This document shows positions 1-63,829 of a DNA stretch of 64,000 bases, in pieces (the first letter of the stretch is position 1; every line of letters begins with the position of its first letter). Source of the DNA: Iphione sp. A-MEVVRFRX5 (taxonomy: Eukaryota); the NCBI GenBank assembly GCA_976226885.1, contig OZ320319.1, forward strand, positions 75,640,001 through 75,704,000, in the 5' to 3' direction. The translations under genes were made by a program, and so were the position numbers. The notes beneath the pieces are model-generated. The model searched no databases and was not told the DNA's origin. It saw nothing but the letters and a program-made list of their open reading frames with translations.

Positions 1-2
1 CA

Positions 3-3000
3 GAGTGGGCAGCCCCAGCCTTTTTGGTGTCAAAAGGGGGGCCTGGTAAACACACTGGTTGGCGTTTGGTTGTTGACTATAGGGGTTTAAATACGGCCAC
101 CATAGACAGGTGCCTTAATATTCCCCGTATTGATGATACCCTTGATGCTATTGGTCAAGTGAAACCACAGTGGTTCTCTGCTTTAGACCTCGCTGCCTCC
201 TTCCATCAGTTGCCTATCAGGGAGGAGGACAGGGACAAAACTGCATTTTTAACACAAGATGGGGCATATAGGTACACTCGTTTACCTATGGGCCTACAGG
301 GATCACCTGCATCCCTACAATTGGCCATGGACAAACTTCTGTCAGACATTAGGTATAAGACATGTCTTGCCTATTTAGATGACATTATTGTCTTTTCCCC
401 CACTTTTGAACAACATCTAAAAGACCTAGAGGAGGTATTCAGGCGTCTACAGTCTGCAAATCTGAAACTAAAAGCCTCTAAGTGTCATGTTGGCTGTAAG
501 CAAATTAACTACCTAGGACATGTTCTTTCCCCTGAGGGAGTTGCCCCACAAAACGACAAGATTACAGCCATGACATCCCTTAAAACTCCTACCACTGTTA
601 AGGCAGTGAGACAGTTCCTGGGTATGGTAGGTTTCTATAGGAAATTTATCAGGAATTTTGCAGACATTGCTAGGCCCCTAACCCTCCTCCTAAAAGAAAA
701 GACAGAGTGGGTCTGGGGAGAAGACCAGCAAAAAGCCTACGACACCCTAATACAGGCTATCACCAGTTATGAGGTATTGATCTACCCAGACTTCAATAAA
801 CCATTTGAGTTGAGCACTGATGCTAGTGATGTAGGCATGGGGGCAGTGCTCTCTCAAAAAGATGACAGGGATGTATTGAGACCAGTGGCCTATGCGGCTA
901 AAACTTTCATCCCTGCTGAATTAAACTACACCACTACTGAAAAAGAACTGTGTGCAGTGGTGTGGGCCTGTAATTATTTCAGGGTTTATTTAGAGGGAAG
1001 GAGATTCACCATCCATACTGATCACAATGCCCTGAAATGGATCCTGACAACAAAGTCAGTGACAGGCAGATTAGCTAGGTGGGCAGCCAAATTACAGGGT
1101 TTTACCTTTGATGTAAAACATGTAAAAGGTAAAGAAAATGTAGTCCCAGATGCTCTATCAAGGCTACAGAGTAGGGAGAAGCCAGAGGACGTTTCAGCAA
1201 TACAGAATATATTGGGGGGTCAGGGAGGAGTCTCTGACATACCAGACACTCCAGAGAAGGAGGAAACCCACCCCTCCACCCACCAAGGCTTCTCCCCTCA
1301 CTGTCCACCAAATAAGGGGCTACAAACTCCTTGGATACGACCTCAGAGCCCACACCCTGTCCAGTCTGAATACATTAATTCCTCTTCCCCAAATTCACCA
1401 CCAAAAATGGGCACCAAAGCTCAGATTCAGGATGAGTTGAGGCCTGACCAATACACTGATGTATGCAGGGCTGAGGGGAGAGATGGGGTTTGGGTTCCTA
1501 CCCCCTCCCCCACTCCACACCCCTCTCCTGGCCTCCCAGGCCTCCATGGAGCTCGTTTCTCTCACCCTGGTCACTACTCCTTGGCCCAGAGCCAAGAGAG
1601 AGGTCGGATGGCTGAAATAACCATCCCACCACCCATCAAACCACCCTCCCCACCAGCTGCCAACCCTGGTAGCCTCCCACCCAACCCACCCTGCCTTCCC
1701 ACCCAGTCAGGAGGCTCCCTGCCTACCTCCCCTACCAGAGGGGAGGGGGAGAATATAAGAGAGTTCTCTAATACACATGGTATAGGTGTTCACACTTTAC
1801 AGCAAAAACCACAAAACAAAAGGAGAAAAAGATATCTGACTCAAGCATCCCAATCTATCCCTGAATGTCTCAATGGATTAGGGTTGGATGTAGACCTTAT
1901 TAGAGGAGAACAAGAGAAAGACCCCTTTTGCTCAGAGATATTAAACTTCCTCAGACACTCTAAACTCCCTGATGATGAAGACAAGGCAAGAGCTATTGTC
2001 TTGAGAGAGATGGATTATTTCATTTCTGATGATCTCCTATATAGACTCAATACTCCGGGGGGAAAGAAATCTCAGGTAACTGCACAGTTAGTTATTCCCC
2101 ACAATCTTATCAAAACTGTCCTAAGTCTCCACCATGATACTACATATGCAGGTCACTTAGGTTCACAGAAAATGCTTTCTGTAATGCGTCCACGTTACTT
2201 TTGGCCAAAACTCGTAGAGGATGTACAACTCTACACAAAATCCTGTGATGTGTGTAATGCAAATAAAAGAATGACACACACCATCAAACCACCGCTCACT
2301 CTCAGGGAGCCAGCCCCTGCTCCCTTTGCAGTGGTCAATATGGATGCCATCGAGGACCTGCCCCCGACAGAACAGGGAAACAAACATATCATAACTATTG
2401 TGGACTTTTATTCCAGATACCTCATAGCGTTCCCTGTCCCAGATCTAAAAGCAGCGACCCTTGCTAAACACTTTTATGAACAAGTTATCTGCCGCTTCGG
2501 GGCAGTGCGTCGGATTGTTAGTGACAATGGATCGGCTTTTATCTCTGAGTTGTTCAAAGAACTTTGCGTACGATTTGGCATACAACAAACCTTTATCACT
2601 AGCCTACATCCATCCTCTTCAGGCCTAGTTGAAAGATTCAATAGATCCATTATCAACAGCCTGAAAAACTATGTCCAGGAAAATCAGACAGACTGGGACA
2701 AGTTTCTCCCCTCTGTCTGCTATGCACTGAATATGTCGGATGCATATTCAACTGGACATAGCCCACATCTCCTCGTTCATGGGTACAACCCACCAACCCC
2801 ACCAGAGTCTAACCTTGATGATCCATTCAATGACCCTAAAAATGTACAACAAATCTTTGCAGATATCCTACAGGCACAACATGCAGCTGACAAGGTAGCA
2901 AAAGAACACCTTGCCATGACTCAGGACAAAATGAAGGAAAGGTATGATAAGACAGCATATATGCCAGACCTAAAACCTGGTGATATTGTTTGGTTGTTTT

Positions 3001-4148
3001 GGCCTAGAATTGCTCTTCCCAAAACTAGACTTAAACTTTCCAAAGTTTACCATGGACCTTTCCTTTTTGTCAGATTTCAATCTCCCTCTACTTGTTTCAT
3101 TAAGAGACTCTCTGACAATAAGTTTCTGGATAAACCTGTGGCAGTGGCTAGGTTAAAGAAGGGTTTGTTAAGAGAGGACATCACTCACTGGGATCCTATT
3201 ATTGGTGATATAGAGGACCCAATTGAATTGGATGAAGGTGACTTACCAAATGACAGTTTTGAGATGAGTGAACAGGATAGATCTGTCTCCAATCCAGACC
3301 CTGTCCTAGTCACTGTACATGAATCTACAGAGAAGAGAGACCAACCAACCCCTACCACCCACCCTTCCACCCCTCCCACCCATCAACAGACCCCTACTAC
3401 TACTCCCACCACCCCCACTACTACTCCTGATGCTCCTACAACCTCTAGGACGTTTCCTGGAGTAGATATAACGCTCCCAGTGCTGCCACAAGCGTCCTAC
3501 ACCCTCCCCCAGTCTCCTAATCAGCTCCAGAGCTCCAGGACGGATTTAGAACCTGATCCTCCACTCCTACACACACTGGCAGGCACTCCAGGGGGAGGGG
3601 GAGCATTCCAGGACGAGTTCTATACACCACCACAGCTCCCACCACCTCACAGGAGGGGCAGAGACCTCTCAAGAGGGAGTAAAGACCCCCATCTACTTAT
3701 TGACTCACCCCCATCTCAATCTTCACCCCTCCCATCACACAGCTCTTCCCCCACACCACAGACACCACAGATACGTCCTCCTGGCCATGGTATACCTCCC
3801 ACCCACTCTGGAGGGGAGCAGAATCCCTCCCAGTCAGGGAGCAGTGAACTCTTCACCCCTACACCTCCCCAGCCTCCCCAGAGTGTACCAAACGAAGGTG
3901 ATAAGCTATCCTACCCTGCTGCAAGTAAAAGTTTAGGCCCAGACAAAGTTTATCATGAAGTAAAAGAAATGATAGACATGGGTAATGTGTCAGGTTTAGG
4001 AACAAGATTCAAACTTGTTTTTGCAGATGGAGATATTAGATGGGTAGCACCTGAGTGTCTAAATACCATGGCTAAACAAAAGTTTCTCACCTCTGAAATA
4101 CAGGAGGATTCTCTTAGAGAAGTTCCCCACACTAGATCTATGAGGTAA
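3..4148 (+). CDS. pol: Pol polyprotein (5'-partial): RT, RNase H, Pro-rich insert, integrase, Pro/Thr-rich linker, chromodomain-like C-terminus
   Basis: Frame open from base 3 (EWAAPAFLVSK...WRLVVDYRGLN). YLDD at 372-383; RNase H TDAS/KELCA/HTDH/PDAL; INT H-x6-H and CDVC; D (2343), D (2523), E (2631) with exact D-35-E spacing; GPF motif ~3054-3062. Confidence 0.97.
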   Translation, partial: EWAAPAFLVSKGGPGKHTGWRLVVDYRGLNTATIDRCLNIPRIDDTLDAIGQVKPQWFSALDLAASFHQLPIREEDRDKTAFLTQDGAYRYTRLPMGLQGSPASLQLAMDKLLSDIRYKTCLAYLDDIIVFSPTFEQHLKDLEEVFRRLQSANLKLKASKCHVGCKQINYLGHVLSPEGVAPQNDKITAMTSLKTPTTVKAVRQFLGMVGFYRKFIRNFADIARPLTLLLKEKTEWVWGEDQQKAYDTLIQAITSYEVLIYPDFNKPFELSTDASDVGMGAVLSQKDDRDVLRPVAYAAKTFIPAELNYTTTEKELCAVVWACNYFRVYLEGRRFTIHTDHNALKWILTTKSVTGRLARWAAKLQGFTFDVKHVKGKENVVPDALSRLQSREKPEDVSAIQNILGGQGGVSDIPDTPEKEETHPSTHQGFSPHCPPNKGLQTPWIRPQSPHPVQSEYINSSSPNSPPKMGTKAQIQDELRPDQYTDVCRAEGRDGVWVPTPSPTPHPSPGLPGLHGARFSHPGHYSLAQSQERGRMAEITIPPPIKPPSPPAANPGSLPPNPPCLPTQSGGSLPTSPTRGEGENIREFSNTHGIGVHTLQQKPQNKRRKRYLTQASQSIPECLNGLGLDVDLIRGEQEKDPFCSEILNFLRHSKLPDDEDKARAIVLREMDYFISDDLLYRLNTPGGKKSQVTAQLVIPHNLIKTVLSLHHDTTYAGHLGSQKMLSVMRPRYFWPKLVEDVQLYTKSCDVCNANKRMTHTIKPPLTLREPAPAPFAVVNMDAIEDLPPTEQGNKHIITIVDFYSRYLIAFPVPDLKAATLAKHFYEQVICRFGAVRRIVSDNGSAFISELFKELCVRFGIQQTFITSLHPSSSGLVERFNRSIINSLKNYVQENQTDWDKFLPSVCYALNMSDAYSTGHSPHLLVHGYNPPTPPESNLDDPFNDPKNVQQIFADILQAQHAADKVAKEHLAMTQDKMKERYDKTAYMPDLKPGDIVWLFWPRIALPKTRLKLSKVYHGPFLFVRFQSPSTCFIKRLSDNKFLDKPVAVARLKKGLLREDITHWDPIIGDIEDPIELDEGDLPNDSFEMSEQDRSVSNPDPVLVTVHESTEKRDQPTPTTHPSTPPTHQQTPTTTPTTPTTTPDAPTTSRTFPGVDITLPVLPQASYTLPQSPNQLQSSRTDLEPDPPLLHTLAGTPGGGGAFQDEFYTPPQLPPPHRRGRDLSRGSKDPHLLIDSPPSQSSPLPSHSSSPTPQTPQIRPPGHGIPPTHSGGEQNPSQSGSSELFTPTPPQPPQSVPNEGDKLSYPAASKSLGPDKVYHEVKEMIDMGNVSGLGTRFKLVFADGDIRWVAPECLNTMAKQKFLTSEIQEDSLREVPHTRSMR

Positions 4149-4369
4149 ATAACCTACACACATTGATTATTGGCTACATGTCCCAGGCCAGACAATATAC
4201 ATTAGTATTTTGTCTGTGTTGCTCTTGATTATGATTTGGCAAAGGTCATATAGAACACACTGTGATAACTACTGCAGTAGGACTTTGTTTTTTCTGTGAT
4301 ATGTCTGATCAGATAGAATGTACAGAACCCTTTTAGTTTAGTTTCACCTCTGTATATATGCCCAGAGAC

Positions 4370-4387
4370 TTTATTTTTTATAATAAA
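4370..4387. terminator. Back-to-back poly(A) signals: minus-strand AATAAA (4375-4370) and plus-strand AATAAA (4382-4387)
   Basis: TTTATTTTTTATAATAAA; the plus signal is followed by a GU/U-rich tract (cgtcttgttatgtatattt) and lies ~235 nt after the pol stop. Confidence 0.5.
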
Positions 4388-4857
4388 ACGTCTTGTTATG
4401 TATATTTCGGATCTCCCAACAAAAAAAAATCAGAACTGACAGAGACAGAGAAGTGCATACAGGCACAGGGTTTTCAGTTCCCCACATGATTTATCTTGCC
4501 ATTTCTGAAAATGGTTCAGTGGATTGGAGATAACAGTTACAGGAGAAAACTGTTATACGGTAAAAGACCATGGCAGACACTCCCCCTTGCCCAGGGAAGG
4601 AAGGGGATGACCGTAAAGGTTTAGCCCTAGCCCACAAGAAGAAGGGTAGGGATGATTCAGTTTCCCTCCTTAGGGAATGAATATACATGTTTGCGGAACA
4701 TGTCAATTGTATTTTAACTGATCGCTCTCGCACCGTATCAGGTAGACTTGAAAAATTTTGGCATGACCCCTATTTACAAAGAGGGGCTCTAAAGGATATG
4801 TAATGGTGGCCCGAGGGCCGGGTTTCTTTTGGGGGAGGAAAGGGAGAAGATGGCTCT

Positions 4858-5408
4858 TTATTGCGCATGAATATAGTCCATCCACATCTTGCCATACCAG
4901 CCACCCCATTCTATATCCATCTTTCGTGCCCGGTATAATTCCTTCATGAGAAGGAAGTATGCCTTGGCCCAGTACGGTAGGGCAGCACCCCTTATCCGGG
5001 CTAATGACTGTGATCCCATGTCTTTTAACATGGCATCAAAAGCCAGCCGCCCAAGGGGGCCCAATTGCTGGTAGGTATAGGTGTGGTAGGTTTTTGTCTT
5101 AAACAAGGCAGTCCTCTCCAATGCATGTATGTACTTGCATAGGAGACACCAACAGTTTGGTTGACAATCTCCATGAAAGATTTCATGTATCAACTCATCA
5201 CTGCGGGATTTAGTTAACTCCCCTGTAAAACAATACATTAGCAGGAACCAGTCATCAGAGTAAAAAGCTCCAGCCTTTTTGTATACTATGTCATCATCCC
5301 AGTGCTGGGAAACAGACATAAACTCTGCAATACTGTCTGCCATGTCTTTCCCTTCCCAACCTAGAGGTAGGAATGAGTGCATCCCAAACCTGGGATCCAA
5401 CCCTGCCT
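4858..5408 (-). CDS. Main (last) coding exon of an antisense accessory gene of unknown function with a Cys/His cluster
   Basis: Part of the 237-codon minus ORF 4858-5571; globular-looking sequence (HGDCQPNCWCLLCKYIH); acceptor ccctcctctcctctcAG at 5410-5409; strong-Kozak internal Met (GACATGG, MADSIAEF, 161 aa); AATAAA overlaps the TAA stop (4862-4857). Confidence 0.7.
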
Positions 5409-5681
5409 CTGAGAGGAGAGGAGGGAGCCCTAAAACCATACCCATATTTGTAAAGTGGGTTTCCTGACTTAATTTATGCTCAGTCCTTCCTCCTACACCT
5501 CGTTTCTGTTGCCATGGGCCCTCCTCATGGCCCTGGTATTGATGGCTTGACTTATATGGCCAGGTATCCACTCTCTGACCATCACCAGCCCTCCCACCCT
5601 CTCACCAGTGGTGGGGAGAGGCTAAAATCGTTGATATAGCCCCATAGAGCCAGAGAGCACCACCCCACACTCCATACTCAC

Positions 5682-5742
5682 TCTGGAGCAGTGGAAACGT
5701 CCTTGCAACTGCTATACACACAGCAGCAAAGGGGATATACTT
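5682..5742 (-). CDS. Predicted exon 2 of the antisense accessory gene (KYIPFAAVCIAVARTFPLLQ)
   Basis: Acceptor tctctctctctcttAG (5744-5743) and donor GTGAGT (5681); enters in phase 0 and leaves in phase 1, matching both neighbouring exons. Confidence 0.45.
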
Positions 5743-5875
5743 CTAAGAGAGAGAGAGACCACTGGAAAATATCACCAGACTGAATACTGGGTTGTCTCTC
5801 TGTGGTGAAACCTACTACACTTGACTGTGTTATACTGACTCCAACTTATCCTAAGGAACAGAAAGGATAACTCAC

Positions 5876-5917
5876 CTTAGAGAAGGAGTTTATCCAGACT
5901 ACAGTGATTATCACCAT
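5876..5917 (-). CDS. Predicted exon 1 of the antisense accessory gene (MVIITVVWINSFSK; in-frame upstream ATG at 5956 possible)
   Basis: gtcATGg Kozak context; 42 nt ending AAG|GTGAGT (donor at 5875), phase 0. Confidence 0.45.
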
Positions 5918-5936
5918 GACTGCTCTTTGGAGAACA
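5916..5936 (+). CDS. env: Predicted env leader micro-exon (MTALWRT)
   Basis: accATG, 7 codons, then perfect GTAAGT at 5937; 246-nt intron with CACTAAT branch (6149-6155) and tttcAG at 6181-6182; joins env in frame to give signal peptide MTALWRTVVPLLCFASFCRVIQG. Confidence 0.7.
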
Positions 5937-6173
5937 GTAAGTTTTAATAGACTCATTCACACCTCTTTTGAAAGGGAAGTTGTATTGAGTTACTTTTGCA
6001 TTGACTTTAGTCAAAACTTGTATCTTTTCCCTTGTTTTAAGGTTTTGTTCCTCCAATACATTTAAAAGGAGATAACTTTGTTGGCAGAGAAAAGGCCTCA
6101 CTGTTATCCATTTCGGCATTGAGGTTACTTATCTTTAGGGAGGAACATCACTAATTATGGGAATATTTTATGT

Positions 6174-9131
6174 ATGTTTCAGGTAGTGCCACTACTGTGC
6201 TTTGCCTCCTTCTGTAGGGTCATACAGGGGAATGGCCCAGTGGTGAGGCAGAATGTAGGAGTGGTATTCCACCCTACAAAGCATGTCCTCTTAGGGGGCC
6301 AGGAGTCCTATGATCTGGTCTTCAAGATCCACATCCCTAGGGGTCTTGATCATTCTGTTATCAATCCAGACACAGATTTATGTCTTAGGGTCTGGAAACA
6401 TAGATATGGGGGAATGGCTTCAGACCAGCCATCAGATTCAGGCCAAAATATTTCGAAACCAGACCAGACTCCTGACAATACCACCCACTGGCTACCTCCC
6501 TTCCAAAGTATTGACCCTGAAGTACTGGCAATAGCTGCTGAACGTGCGAAACTACCCCATCCGCCACCAACATATGAGGGTGACTTCTGCAACTCGATGA
6601 CACCACTCTTCTCTTCATTACGGAGCGTGCTCCACACTGCTCGACAACACTATAGAGAAGAGCGCAGAAGGCTTATGATGTTGCTGAGGACACCATCCCC
6701 TAACCCAGGAACGGTAACTCCAAGGGCACCTTTCGGTTTCATGGGCCAGTTTCACAGGGCTCTTTATGGCACTGCGACACTTGATGATATTAAGGTCGTA
6801 AATGAGAATATAAAAAGAGTAAAAGGTTATTCAGTCGCGGTTGCAAATTTCACTACAAGACTTAGAGATTATACTCTTCATTTTGTAAATATAACTAGAC
6901 ACAAATTCAATGAACTTGGTAGGGACATGGTACAACATGCAGTTTATATAAACAGGCTTGCACAAGCAGAGCAGGAACTTTCTGAGAAATTAACAAAAAC
7001 CTCCACTCAATTAGAGTCTAATAGGTGGTGGACTCTATATGCACTTTCTTATGTAGGTGCCAAGACTCTGGCTATTCAACAAATTCATAACTATATTAAC
7101 GCTTTGTCCCGTTTTAGGCATGGCCTAGAACAGGGAATGAAGGGATCCCTCACAACTGACTTAATCTCTAGAAAAGACCTAAGGAGTGGTTTAAACCAAT
7201 TGAGAGAAAGACTTGCGAAAGTTGACAGAACAGTGGTCCTTAAAGATGCAGCACTTTACTATAATAACTTTCTGGTCCAGGTAAGGTACAATAGTCGGTA
7301 TATCTATATACATATTTTGGTTCCAGTTGCTAAAACACCCTCTTTGTATGACATGTACCAGGTAAGCACTTTTCCAGTCCCTATTAATATTAAGGATCAT
7401 AAGGGATATACCCAAATTACTAACATCCCTGACATCCTTTTGGTAAATGATCAAACAGGCAACTATATTACCTTATCACACAAGGATCTCATCGGTTGTG
7501 AAATGGATCACTTCATCCTTTGCCCTTTCCCACTCCCTGTTAGGGAACCTACCATCCCTACTTGTATTATGGACATTTTTCTGGATAAAACTATTTCATC
7601 CGCACAATGCAATCACAAGCTCTATCCTTTTCAAGAATCTCCAGATGATATTATCCCTATCTCAGACTCAACATTCATTATTTCTTCCTTCCACCATAAC
7701 TACACCCTCACTTGCAATGACTCAGTCACTACCCATACAGCAAATGGTTTAGCTGTTGCGAAGGTGGGTTGCGATTGCGTCCTACGGATAGGAGGACAGA
7801 TGGTCACAGGAGGCCGTTTCACCTGCGACCGACGAATGCAGATTGAACTCCAGCATGCACTTAACCTTCCAGTCTTACAAGCTTTTAATATTCCTCTGCC
7901 AAATGCCACTCCATCTTTTACCTCAAACATCTCCTACAGTCTGAAACTTCCAAACATTTCTGCCTTCCTTCATGAAGAAAAACAAAAATATGGAGATTCC
8001 TTTACAGATGACCTGGACAAAATTTCAACACAAATGCAAAAGATTAAGGTCCCAAAGCCACCTGTCCTCATGCCATGGCAAGCCGACTCCTTTTCTGACT
8101 GGCTAAAATCCCCATTTGCTTTCTCTTTCATCAGTGGTTGGGGAGCATTTCAGCTTCTCATCTCTCTTGTTTCATTAGGTTTAGCTATCTGGACATTCAT
8201 CAAAATGAGACAGTTAAGGGCAGCTTTACTTTTAGCCACCGCTAGTAGAACTATGTACACCCTGGCTGACCCCATCCCTCAGGTAAACTTCAAAGACCTC
8301 TATCCAATTGCACCTACTATGCCCACTGACATAGACACTGTTGAAGAAAATGACCTTACCCGAGTGCTGGCAAACATGACCTATCTAGACCAGATCGTCT
8401 CGATAATTTTTGTTATTTTTCTAATCTGGATGTTGGCCAAATTATTTAAATCTTGTGCAAAACTGTGTTGTGGAGGCACAGAACAATGCCTCAGCCGTCT
8501 ATCTCCATTTGGTAAACCAAACCACCTTCCTTGGAATCGTTCCACTTTCGCGTCAAGTGGCATTGAGTTTTGGCTCAAATTTGGTTCAGCCCACAAATAC
8601 GAGACCATATATCTGACCACCATTTTCGAACGCCTTGAGGCTACACGTGTGCACTGTATGCCTAAGGTTAAGGTATGTGAAATTATTTGTGGATGCACCA
8701 CTTGTGATGTTATTTTAAACTATGACGGGTGTCTCCAGTTGTCACACCCACATAAGAAGGAGACCATAAATTTGCCTGCAACAGTGCGTATTCCAGCCTG
8801 CAGAGGCAAGGCAATCAAACGCCTTGGCTTAGACACTGTTGAGGCTTGCCTTATTTTACGTCAGGGTGATCTCTGTGCACAGGCTACGGCAGAGACAACT
8901 TGTGCGGCCACTGCCTTATCCCGCACAGCTGCCCGTGCCAGCATGAGAGACCCAACCCACAGGACATCCTCAACCCTACCTCGATCTGCGAGTGCAGAAT
9001 CAATTAACCCTTTCATTCAACCAGAAGAATTGAGCCGAGGTAGAAACCTCAACATGGAGGCCACCGCTCCATTAGTAAAGTTTAAGGACCCGCCTGGTTA
9101 TTCAGGCACATATAACAGCTCATTCGCTTAA
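6174..9131 (+). CDS. env: Envelope glycoprotein, class I fusion F-type (baculovirus F/errantivirus-like), with a C-terminal second-TM extension
   Basis: Signal peptide; R184 followed by fusion-peptide-like APFGFMGQFHRALYGTATLDDI; heptad region; Cys-rich segment; many N-x-S/T sequons; aromatic MPER and TM at ~aa657-677; second TM ~aa741-758; PPGY at aa973-976. Confidence 0.93.
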   Translation: MFQVVPLLCFASFCRVIQGNGPVVRQNVGVVFHPTKHVLLGGQESYDLVFKIHIPRGLDHSVINPDTDLCLRVWKHRYGGMASDQPSDSGQNISKPDQTPDNTTHWLPPFQSIDPEVLAIAAERAKLPHPPPTYEGDFCNSMTPLFSSLRSVLHTARQHYREERRRLMMLLRTPSPNPGTVTPRAPFGFMGQFHRALYGTATLDDIKVVNENIKRVKGYSVAVANFTTRLRDYTLHFVNITRHKFNELGRDMVQHAVYINRLAQAEQELSEKLTKTSTQLESNRWWTLYALSYVGAKTLAIQQIHNYINALSRFRHGLEQGMKGSLTTDLISRKDLRSGLNQLRERLAKVDRTVVLKDAALYYNNFLVQVRYNSRYIYIHILVPVAKTPSLYDMYQVSTFPVPINIKDHKGYTQITNIPDILLVNDQTGNYITLSHKDLIGCEMDHFILCPFPLPVREPTIPTCIMDIFLDKTISSAQCNHKLYPFQESPDDIIPISDSTFIISSFHHNYTLTCNDSVTTHTANGLAVAKVGCDCVLRIGGQMVTGGRFTCDRRMQIELQHALNLPVLQAFNIPLPNATPSFTSNISYSLKLPNISAFLHEEKQKYGDSFTDDLDKISTQMQKIKVPKPPVLMPWQADSFSDWLKSPFAFSFISGWGAFQLLISLVSLGLAIWTFIKMRQLRAALLLATASRTMYTLADPIPQVNFKDLYPIAPTMPTDIDTVEENDLTRVLANMTYLDQIVSIIFVIFLIWMLAKLFKSCAKLCCGGTEQCLSRLSPFGKPNHLPWNRSTFASSGIEFWLKFGSAHKYETIYLTTIFERLEATRVHCMPKVKVCEIICGCTTCDVILNYDGCLQLSHPHKKETINLPATVRIPACRGKAIKRLGLDTVEACLILRQGDLCAQATAETTCAATALSRTAARASMRDPTHRTSSTLPRSASAESINPFIQPEELSRGRNLNMEATAPLVKFKDPPGYSGTYNSSFA

Positions 9132-9266
9132 ACATGCCTCTGCCTACCGAAACCACCATTCTATGTTCTTTGTATTGAAGATGTTTTGACCGGTCCATGC
9201 CCCCGGACCCAACGAGATTGTACTGAAGGAAACAACAACAACAAAAAAAAACCAGTGTCACATACA

Positions 9267-9272
9267 AATAAA
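9267..9272 (+). terminator. AATAAA 136 nt downstream of the env stop
   Basis: catacaAATAAAaattatgt. Confidence 0.4.
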
Positions 9273-9846
9273 AATTATGTAATCTTCGACTGTGTCCAGG
9301 TGGTGAGAATACGCCTGTTCTCCCTACCTAGGAACAGTCTACTTGAGTGTTAACGTTCATTTATGTAGCTTTTGATAATTGCTTATGATGAAATGTACTT
9401 GTATTTACTCATAGAAGGTTTAATCTTGTTTAGAGTTTGAAGTTGATTGTGCCTCATATTATCATTATATAATTTTTTTAAACTTATTCATTTGAGATGG
9501 ATGGAACAACTAGCTAGAGTAGGATTTTATTCATTGTGTGACATGTTTTTATTGTATTATGTATTCTGAGCATTTACCTATTCTCTTACACCGTATTAGG
9601 TTTGTGGTTATACATATATAATCTATATGGTATATAACTTATTTATGATATGTAATGCATGCAATACATTCTAACCATGATATATGTAACTTGTTTTGAG
9701 TCACTAGATATTCAAGCAATTACAACCATATCTACTATCTTATACATACTCTCATTATTTAATTGAGTTACCTCTCGCTGACTTCGTATTTATTCAACAC
9801 CTTCTATGAAACACCTACCTCAGTTCTGATGGAACAGAACTTTTCC

Positions 9847-9860
9847 AGAGAGGAGGTGAG
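9847..9860 (+). other. Polypurine tract (PPT)
   Basis: AGAGAGGAGGTGAG immediately 5' of TGTTAAC. Confidence 0.75.
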
Positions 9861-10660
9861 TGTTAACATATTAATGTACTCAATATTGTGAATCCTACAC
9901 TGTCTCAATTGTGGGATATGTTTTTAACCTTATCTACCATTAACTCTGTATTATCTTAATGTTTCACTCAGGTTTTAACCCTTTGCATGGCTTGCAGGCT
10001 CTATAGCCACAAGACTTCGATTTGGAGTGTATTTCTGGGTAGTATAGAGTAGGTAGGTTAGGGTTCAGGCGAGGAGGGAGCATCTGAGTAAATATAGCCC
10101 TTGCCAGAGGGGAGGGGGCTCTGCCCCATCCAGCTCAGGCAGGCAGAGGGCTAGCGCTGGGAGTTGCTCCCTGGGCACTGGCCAGTACAGTACTACCTTC
10201 AAAATCGACCTGGATACTCCCTCATCTCCTGTATTAATTGTGGTGAATCAGAGTTGTTCCTATTCCATCTCACATCTATGTAACTGTGTGCATTGTTGAG
10301 ATGGAATATACACCTTACAGCGGATCCCTGTTGTTGTCTTATTGGATTTAATACACCAGGAACACACACACACACACTACCATACATACAGACATTGCTC
10401 CCCACATATAACCCTGCAAAGGAGTTATACCGGACGTTCTATTATCCACAAAGGAACAAGTGTGTATCTACCAAACCCCACACAAGGGTTTGGACTCCTG
10501 GAGACATTTCCACCAGACACTCTTTCACAACTGTGAGCTGTTTTGTGATGCTCATGTAGCAGTGTGTCGAGCAAGAGGAAAGCACGGTCTGACAACAAGT
10601 TCACACAAGCGTCCAACTGACAGGAGCAAATCGTGACCTTTTAGGACTTTCCCCGTAACA
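9861..10660 (+). repeat. 3' LTR (~800 bp; end could be 10668)
   Basis: Begins TGTTA right after the PPT and ends GTAACA (TGTTA/TAACA inverted termini); TATA-like TAAATATA at 10089-10096; a second GTAACA ends at 10668; the 5' LTR is not available for confirmation. Confidence 0.7.
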
Positions 10661-25390: not shown

Positions 25391-25920
25391 CTTTGCGTTG
25401 CCTACAGACAGTTAAATCATAATTCGTGAGCTACTTACTTGTAGATGTGGATATACTTGTAGATGGGGACTATATCGAGCTACTTACTTGTAGATGTGGA
25501 TACTTCTAGATGGGGACTATATCGAGACTCCCCTCTATCGTGGCTGCGATTTCTCAGAACGCATGGATAGCCACATTTCTCCGGGTATACGTGACCTTTG
25601 GTATACTTCCCAGGGCACAGCGAGATTAAATCGAAAACTTATGTTTTGGATAACTTTGCGTTGCCTACAGACAGTTAAATCATAATTCGTGAGCTACTTA
25701 CTTGTAGATGTGGATATACTTGTAGATGGGGACTATATCGAGCTACTTACTTGTAGATGTGGATACTTCTAGATGGGGACTATATCGAGACTCCCCTCTA
25801 TCGTGGCTGCGATTTCTCAGAACGCATGGATAGCCACATTTCTCCGGGTATACGTGACCTTTGGTATACTTCCCAGGGCACAGCGAGATTAAATCGAAAA
25901 CTTATGTTTTGGATAACTTT
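25391..25920 (+). repeat. Tandem duplication, 2 x 263 bp, each copy with an internal 49/47-bp duplication
   Basis: Units start at 25391 and 25654 (ctttgcgttgcctacag...); identical ORF-track peptides at 25494 and 25757. Confidence 0.95.
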
Positions 25921-45267: not shown

Positions 45268-45409
45268 NNNNNNNNNNNNNNNNNNNNNNNNNNNNNNNNN
45301 NNNNNNNNNNNNNNNNNNNNNNNNNNNNNNNNNNNNNNNNNNNNNNNNNNNNNNNNNNNNNNNNNNNNNNNNNNNNNNNNNNNNNNNNNNNNNNNNNNNN
45401 NNNNNNNNN
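45268..45409. other. Assembly gap (142 N)
   Basis: N run. Confidence 1.
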
Positions 45410-63700: not shown

Positions 63701-63829
63701 NNNNNNNNNNNNNNNNNNNNNNNNNNNNNNNNNNNNNNNNNNNNNNNNNNNNNNNNNNNNNNNNNNNNNNNNNNNNNNNNNNNNNNNNNNNNNNNNNNNN
63801 NNNNNNNNNNNNNNNNNNNNNNNNNNNNN
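63701..63829. other. Assembly gap (129 N)
   Basis: N run. Confidence 1.

Follow-up and report, generated by a model that had tools for sequence, protein, structure and literature searches.

The 64,000-nt stretch of DNA analysed here, hereafter called the window, comes from Iphione sp. A-MEVVRFRX5 (assembly GCA_976226885.1, contig OZ320319.1, positions 75,640,001 to 75,704,000 of the forward strand). Positions 1-10529 hold the right part of a long terminal repeat (LTR) element, with pol, a 2-kb spacer, a long third open reading frame (ORF) and the 3' LTR, and gag, a site resembling a primer-binding site (PBS) and the 5' LTR lie just to the left, in stretch L051. The element belongs to a young, env-carrying family of Ty3/gypsy (Metaviridae) LTR elements. 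We focus on two genes: env, which is likely to start on a seven-codon micro-exon in the spacer, and an antisense gene, whose main exon is coding and whose predicted first exon faces that of env from a single CATG palindrome. The features of the sense strand, together with the palindrome, are as follows.

3..4148, plus strand: 3' part of pol (reverse transcriptase (RT), RNase H, integrase and Pro-rich tail), Ty3/gypsy, from domains and ORF.
5559..5915, plus strand: run without ATG ending at ATG 5916, likely 5' untranslated region (UTR) of the env mRNA, from shuffles.
5575..5608, plus strand: candidate acceptor region, with the branch-point word CTGAC (A at 5578) and AG 5607-5608 (score 6.2), that would make 5609-5936 an internal exon.
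5915..5918, both strands: CATG palindrome with the plus-strand ATG 5916 and the minus-strand ATG 5917.
5916..5936, plus strand: putative env leader exon, coding end, seven codons, phase 0, from motifs and conservation.
5937..6182, plus strand: predicted env intron of 246 nt, with GTAAGT, a CTAAT branch at 6151-6155 and AG 6181-6182; acceptor position as in 20/20 sister loci.
6174..6176, plus strand: rival in-frame env ATG inside the acceptor tract, with T at -3.
6183..9131, plus strand: env body exon, with the signal-peptide core, an F-like ectodomain, two hydrophobic segments and a tail.
9844..10533, plus strand: purine tract, 3' LTR (9861-10529, TG...CA) and 4-bp target-site duplication.

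Pfam domains occur in pol in the order RVT_1, RT_RNaseH, Integrase_H2C2 and rve. Upstream of pol, gag is a 390-codon ORF with two CCHC-like knuckles, read by eye, and the PBS-like site starts with TGG 1 nt after the 5' LTR. The two LTRs are identical, with a 670-nt match at 100% between L051 and the window. Of the 32 matches returned by a DNA search of the genome, 26 are full length, at 97-100% identity. To describe conservation we compared 26 loci, one of which lacked coverage; the window and 25 copies thus make up the 26 covering sequences to which counts out of 26 refer. Not among the loci compared were that of the window itself, two split pieces and one diverged relic. The genome holds no intact relatives of intermediate divergence, integrase identity falling from 98-100% to 49-51%; five sister families, whose env is 22-28% identical, were sampled at 20 loci. 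Splice sites were scored with a generic matrix not trained on the host. An Rfam search matched nothing in 4149-6300.

The motifs that a first-pass annotation of this DNA had reported around the palindrome are all found where it had placed them, as read directly on both strands. On the plus strand, accATG at 5916 opens seven codons that run to 5936, GTAAGT follows at 5937-5942, and the exon leads in phase 0 into the env frame. CACTAAT at 6149-6155 places the branch A at 6154, 28 nt before the G at 6182, with no other AG between this branch point and AG 6181-6182. On the minus strand, gtcATGg at 5917 opens 14 codons that run to 5876, followed by GTGAGT at 5875-5870.

The proposal made there of an env micro-exon in the pol-env spacer is supported indirectly by the acceptors of the sister families, by a leader devoid of Met and by a long run without ATG, and we consider it likely that env starts at ATG 5916. 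In the sister families, all 20 loci have a pyrimidine-rich YAG 6-9 nt ahead of the env ATG, at a point 24-25 codons upstream of the RQN motif that the env proteins share; in the window the acceptor is 21 codons before RQN, the hydrophobic core follows it directly, and the stretch from acceptor to RQN has no in-frame ATG. The open frames before the donor that follows the PBS (46, 83 and 88 codons) have no Met, and the LTR leader has no ATG in any frame, so a direct splice from the leader to 6183 yields no start. Since there is also no in-frame ATG after the acceptor, the start of env has to come from ATG 5916, from ATG 6174 or from a donor in gag or pol. The longest plus-strand gap without ATG in 1-10529, of 360 nt, ends exactly at ATG 5916. 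Such a gap arises in 15 of 10000 local shuffles and in 0/148 host windows, and anywhere in the spacer in 232 of 10000 whole-spacer shuffles; an ATG was gained within 5559-5915 in one of the 25 copies. The gag leader, as a positive control, has a gap of 309 nt, and a gap of 357 nt in the pol tail is compositional (996/5000 shuffles). The micro-exon peptide starts with MTAL in 14/26 sequences and with MTAL or MIAL in 24/26, which resembles the MTAL, MTPL and MTPA starts in sister families B, C and E. Donor 5937 is the best-scoring plus-strand donor within 800 nt of the acceptor. In every model the hydrophobic core is entirely in exon 2, so the argument from a complete signal peptide cannot separate ATG 5916 from ATG 6174.

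Several observations weigh against this assignment. Among 435 plus-strand GT sites donor 5937 ranks 20th (score 6.8), and eight donors with higher scores also have an upstream phase-0 ATG. Acceptor 6182, with a score of 5.9, is surpassed by 6041, by 6138 and by the out-of-frame 6217 (10.4). ATG 6174 is kept in 25/26 sequences and in the 74%-identical relic L052, and the length from it to RQN, 24, is nearer to the 22-23 of the sister families than the 28 of the spliced form. Among 11 loci that are partial or rearranged, none proved to be a retro-processed copy in which one or other splice is preserved; L079 and L080 have junctions that are short microhomologies. The scarcity of plus-strand GTRAGT in six element bodies (12 plus, 43 minus), considered as a sign of selection against sense donors and rejected, reflects base composition, a Markov model giving 12.4 and 43.2.

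As for the protein, env is functional and under purifying selection, the variants shared in 6183-7000 comprising 20 synonymous and 5 nonsynonymous changes (omega 0.09, 23 sequences). We read the third ORF as an F-like env. It has no match in Pfam and no sequence match in the PDB; its top Atlas scores, of 0.92-0.93, are with clusters in which 16-33% of members carry Baculo_F, the recognition score being below threshold. With phmmer it retrieved 782 unnamed relatives, and word-indexed searches with env returned nothing. Two hydrophobic segments, at residues about 655 and 737 of exon 2, precede a long tail. A furin-type R-x-x-R before the fusion peptide is absent, the element having VTPR|APFGF at the site and sister families B and C having KQPR|APFGF; R-x-x-R is present in 3/4 outside relatives. 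The processing site (6714-6734 in the window) is thus monobasic here and in B and C. The closest outside relatives, P0001-P0003, are called proteins without an N-terminal hydrophobic core, and P0003 starts like a read-through of an intron end; scans of viral contigs recovered no DNA around them. We considered a split signal peptide as a trait of the clade and did not count it: the signal is weak, with 30 of 100 long matches lacking the core and P0004, of the same clade, having it.

The opposite strand of the spacer carries the following features.

4857..4862, minus strand: AATAAA overlapping the antisense stop, candidate poly(A) signal; kept in 26/26 and visible in the diverged copy L052.
4858..5408, minus strand: main coding exon of the orphan antisense gene, 182 whole codons, from omega and relics.
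5380..5382, minus strand: first in-frame ATG inside the main exon, a rival start; kept in 27/27 and lost in the rearranged relic L052.
5409..5429, minus strand: pyrimidine tract and AG, top-scoring minus-strand acceptor (12.0), phase 1.
5682..5742, minus strand: predicted antisense exon 2, 61 nt, with acceptor AG 5744-5743 after a (TC)n run and donor GTGAGT 5681-5676.
5870..5875, minus strand: donor AAG|GTGAGT, top-scoring minus-strand donor in 4149-10529 (12.0); hexamer unchanged in 26/26.
5876..5917, minus strand: coding part of predicted antisense exon 1, 14 codons, from the in-frame chain.

The main exon, 5408-4858, is coding, which bears out the earlier proposal of an antisense gene in the spacer. 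Its shared variants (8 synonymous, 8 nonsynonymous) give omega 0.33 (p=0.026), the best of the six frames, and mismatches to diverged relics are in excess at third positions: 53/168 against 30/166 and 23/167 at the other two for one relic (p=0.0003), and 41/135 against 18/133 and 16/137 for another (p=0.0001). The excess is not significant for two shorter, closer relics. No plus-strand ORF of at least 80 codons covers this exon. Parts of the gene are kept in decayed, rearranged relics of older lineages, at 74-90% DNA identity (L052:5400-7300, L053:4755-5035, L054, L055 and L056), indicating that it is no recent gain. Judged from its sequence, the product is an orphan: no Pfam family was found at E<=0.1, and no homologue was found by word-indexed search, in viral contigs or among 2722 ORFs of the sister families. 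Its best Atlas score is 0.87, and a single-sequence fold has a pLDDT of 40.7. Two metagenome loci considered as homologues were rejected, since they match mainly a short search motif. Without donor 5681, the minus-strand frame from 5742 to 5602 would continue for 46 hydrophobic codons to a TGA at 5604-5602, reopening beyond it for 247 codons; a short membrane peptide or a read-through product may be made from it.

Where translation of the antisense gene begins is less clear-cut than its coding nature. Transcription would run leftward from within or beyond the env intron, with splices 5876>5742 and 5682>5408 and poly(A) addition near 4857, before pol is reached, and the protein would start at ATG 5917 (or at the second in-frame ATG, 5956, of weaker context) or at ATG 5382, with about equal chances. 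The evidence on the earlier assignment of the start to ATG 5917 is divided. In its favour, donor 5875, acceptor 5743, donor 5681 and acceptor 5409 give a stop-free, in-frame chain from 5917, headed by the top minus-strand donor; against it, exons 1 and 2 show no synonymous bias, the main exon has an ATG of its own, and the donor is lost in a remnant. If splicing takes place, we regard a start at 5917 as about an even bet, and overall as somewhat short of one.

It is about equally probable that, whatever the route to env, exons 1 and 2 are untranslated or not exons at all, the protein being made from ATG 5382, with 5917 unused and CATG serving one gene. Shared variants in the two small exons (2 synonymous, 5 nonsynonymous among the young copies) and third-position mismatches to L053 (1/13 and 1/19) are consistent with this, as are a leader-like minus strand free of ATG from 5914 to 5676 (179/5000 shuffles) and the frequency of CATG at env starts (15/20). 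In remnant L053 (82% identity) donor 5875 is degraded. The sites compared are few and of little power, and L053, the only diverged remnant of that stretch, is a decayed fragment that breaks off at 5914. A start at 5382 also leaves aside that the strongest sites put 5917 in frame, stop-free, through both small exons (roughly 7% by chance, in our own estimate), that ATG 5917 has a strong minus-strand context, and that exon 1 is stop-free in 26/26 sequences and exon 2 in 25/26.

None of the 26 covering sequences departs from the CATG itself, from either donor hexamer, from the CTAAT core or from the AG. Set against local variation, the invariance of the 16 motif bases on the plus strand has P=0.049 and that of 15 bases on the minus strand P=0.16; with young copies so alike, it is weak evidence. 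The plus-strand ATG has a purine at -3 in 26/26 sequences, and its context reads GCCACCATG in 13 of them. The whole geometry (a shared CATG, both exons in phase 0, purine at -3 and GTRAGT within 30 codons) occurred once in 20000 dinucleotide shuffles of the spacer, against 93 for versions in any phase and 524 for a plus-strand ATG micro-exon in the last 500 nt, for a pattern that was defined after it had been seen. Among 1589 other CATG sites in 303 kb of other DNA, many of which are repeat copies, a mirrored phase-0 GTRAGT exon was found at 22, a forward one at 11 and both at none. RNA folding around CATG is not notable (z=-1.73, 13/200 shuffles equally good).

Any C at -1 of a start codon makes a CATG, so the palindrome in itself is ordinary. 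It is present at the env start in 15 of the 20 sister-family loci, where the minus-strand frames are 3-12 codons long and have no donor. The conservation in sister elements that the first-pass annotation had proposed as a check is seen for CATG at those 15 loci; the sister families show no mirrored exon. CATG at an env start is ordinary, and the rare part is the mirrored donor only. That both ATGs are used is doubtful. More doubtful still is the fullest version, in which the element would be a 'complex' Ty3/gypsy virus of animals and translation of two spliced genes, env on one strand and a conserved antisense regulator of three exons on the other, would start from one 4-bp palindrome; through their overlapping 5' ends each gene would shut off the other, so that the element would toggle between a state with an envelope and one that is silent or intracellular.

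As to how the env mRNA would be made, we tentatively favour, at a little under an even chance, an LTR-driven, doubly spliced mRNA with ATG 5916 on an internal exon, the CATG overlap being likely a by-product of the C at -1. Transcription would start from the 5' LTR. A first splice, from the GTAAGT donor right after the PBS to an acceptor near 5608 or, as a weaker candidate, 5856, would take out gag-pol together with the main exon of the antisense gene. Exon 5609-5936 would provide the 5' UTR and the first seven env codons, and a second splice across 5937-6182 would add the hydrophobic core and the remainder of Env. The minus-strand ATG in the palindrome might or might not be put to use by the antisense gene. 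Strand antagonism, if any, would affect all sense RNA crossing the spacer, including genomic RNA, and not env alone.

The candidate acceptor for the first splice has a C-rich tract between the branch-like CTGAC and AG 5607-5608, and the last upstream ATG (5556) falls just outside it; joined to the donor after the PBS, it would give a leader without any ATG before 5916. The stretch 5575-5608 is identical in 22/26 sequences, with four single-copy changes, and the GTAAGT after the PBS is kept in all four sequences that gave a match (six loci tried). A minus-strand 'donor' at 5605 is the mirror image of acceptor 5608. In Drosophila, every subclade described in PMC12992720 splices its env mRNA from an exon at the 5' end, and among retroviruses complex ones use doubly spliced mRNAs and foamy viruses an internal promoter, as described in PMC12789967. 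Against the doubly spliced mRNA, acceptor 5608 is outscored by 4594 and 4673, and the donor after the PBS does not reach a score of 6. Shared variation is also low across 5409-5936, predicted introns included, at 22/528 sites versus 82/709 in 4149-4857, a test that is optimistic as the copies are related; this fits a promoter as well as an exon.

Three further observations concern these regions. The acceptor-like sites 4594 and 4673 on the plus strand of the spacer have very high scores; in both cases a further AG precedes the site by 12-15 nt. A 54-nt intron-like stretch (L051:7871-7924), located between PBS and gag ATG, has GTAAGT, TTGAC words and an AG 6 nt before the start codon; this AG is altered in one of four matching sequences. 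The observed/expected CpG ratio is lowest, among the stretches measured, in 5409-5915 (0.10, versus 0.40 in env and 0.66 in the host flank).

A promoter in the spacer, at about 5450-5750, might instead make the micro-exon a first exon, overlapping head to head with the antisense unit; the two units would interfere and possibly be used in different cells or stages. All the evidence for the micro-exon applies equally to such an arrangement, and the constraint on 5409-5936, predicted antisense introns included, is in keeping with it. TATA-like words are present on the minus strand at 5949 and 6172, and the plus strand has a (GA)n run at 5744-5759, which may correspond to GAGA-type promoter elements. 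Internal promoters have precedents in foamy viruses (PMC12789967) and, going by the title of a work cited in PMC11963269, in the antisense gene of Grande. On the other hand, the plus strand of 5559-5915 showed neither a TATA nor an Inr consensus, and the sister families have no mirrored exon or detectable antisense coding in the spacer. We consider a spacer promoter unlikely without being far-fetched, and between the two routes we lean modestly towards the LTR. The specific layout put forward in the first-pass annotation, two internal promoters each located in the other gene's first intron and acting as a mutually exclusive switch, is not supported: the run without ATG extends to 5559, beyond antisense intron 1, and therefore does not fit this geometry, and plus-strand TATA and Inr consensuses are missing from 5559-5915. 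With the donor after the PBS and the candidate acceptor 5608, env expression calls for no plus-strand promoter in the spacer. An env/antisense switch is probably not needed, and one that is mutually exclusive is very unlikely.

A third possibility is that env starts at ATG 6174, the 5' end of the mRNA or an acceptor lying shortly upstream, and that ATG 5916 and donor 5937 are coincidental. Besides its conservation and its distance to RQN, given above, this ATG is in frame with the same hydrophobic core downstream, and an acceptor at 6138 scores 7.5. It has T or C at -3, however, and is preceded by the out-of-frame plus-strand ATGs 6157 (strong context, kept in 25/26) and 6170, both included by a splice to 6138. 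It also lies inside the acceptor tract, where sister families also have incidental ATGs, and a start there leaves the 360-nt run without ATG and the invariant GTAAGT/CTAAT pair unexplained. We regard it as quite improbable. Slightly less probable again is a junction of acceptor 6182 with a phase-0 donor in gag or 5' pol, giving a longer Env leader as in the idefix subclade (PMC12992720): such donors outscore 5937 (for example CAG|GTAAAG at L051:8378, phase 0, 149 codons after the gag ATG) and splicing from the 5' region fits the mere 100-230 nt or so that sister derivatives share before RQN, but a modest hydrophobic core (best 11-mer 2.36) would stand behind 149 residues, and the nearer invariant donor and the run without ATG would be ignored.

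In the sister families, extra ORFs between pol and env are on the sense strand and under purifying selection, as follows (coordinates of L068 and L062 re-oriented).

L068 2583-3248: sister sense ORF, omega 0.22.
L074 2634-3200: sister sense ORF, omega 0.35.
L060 4242-6092: sister sense ORF, omega 0.58.
L062 4311-5960: sister sense ORF, omega 0.39.

These ORFs are probably spliced accessory genes. Those of D and F share 34% identity over 164 aa, and a short segment of them is found again where the Pro-rich ORFs of B and C end. Because the sister spacers carry sense ORFs, with no antisense coding signal detected, the head-to-head layout is not, on present evidence, a trait of the clade. Among copies of the D, E and F families, similarity is regained only some 100-230 nt ahead of the RQN codons, which in E is immediately upstream of the env acceptor. 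L059, L070, L071, L079 and L080 are derivatives, either internally deleted or nested.

The nearest named class is that of the env-carrying Ty3/gypsy 'ancient errantiviruses' with F-type env (Chary and Hayashi, PMC13524379), beside which we set the family by its features. Shared with them are the order LTR-gag-pol-env, the RT-RNase H-integrase arrangement, an env that we read as F-like and many near-identical copies; the present family stands apart in the 2 kb between pol and env, where an antisense gene is under selection, and in its likely split env start. The main text of PMC13524379 contains neither 'splic' nor 'antisense' (0 times each), and its first non-insect screen limited the pol-env distance to at most 1000 nt, later steps extending it.

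As regards the env start, the first-pass annotation's statement that env of Drosophila gypsy and ZAM is spliced from a 5' leader is right in outline. In the insect endogenous retroviruses (iERVs) of Drosophila (ZAM/Beagle, springer, idefix; Senti et al., PMC12992720), as is likely here, an upstream exon supplies the start of the env body, and in ZAM/Beagle this is a short peptide-coding exon. There the upstream exon is located before or within gag, whereas in this element no ATG occurs in the leader and the putative exon with the ATG is separated from env by 246 nt, which would call for a second splice or an internal promoter. A start of the Drosophila type, with ATG or AU in a leader exon upstream of gag, was not found in this element, as the leader has no Met and the post-PBS donor follows GCT; a donor within gag is possible for env.

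The antisense gene recalls plant Retand/Tat elements (Grande, RIRE2, Retand), also Ty3/gypsy, which have a conserved antisense gene downstream of pol (PMC11963269, PMC8220671). These form a plant lineage in which the sense ORFs of that region do not resemble env and a TRP28 domain is described (PMC11963269). Here the antisense protein has no Pfam family and no TRP28, and hence lacks the Retand-type domain, and its predicted first exon overlaps the env start. In outline, multiple splicing combined with a spliced antisense gene is also reminiscent of complex retroviruses: deltaretroviruses have the spliced antisense genes HBZ and APH-2 and doubly spliced tax/rex mRNAs (PMC8622228, PMC12789967). 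The present element differs in its Ty3/gypsy pol, its F-like env and the position of its antisense gene between pol and env, and there is no sequence link. Among the entries listed by searches of the open-access literature, none describes a start on a shared CATG or an antisense gene between pol and env in an animal gypsy element.

Outside the element, the window contains an exact 263-nt tandem duplication at 25391-25916 and two runs of N (45268-45409 and 63701-63829).

Env-carrying gypsy elements outside insects have so far been described as three-ORF elements. The family studied here and its five sister families, all in one genome, have selected extra genes between pol and env, and Env production in the present family likely needs two splices or an internal promoter, suggesting a retrovirus-like regulatory complexity in this group. 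Annotation from ORFs only would miss such env starts. If env alone uses its ATG, the palindrome is an ordinary one; if both ATGs are used, CATG would couple two genes unusually tightly and may offer a simple model for sense-antisense control of env.

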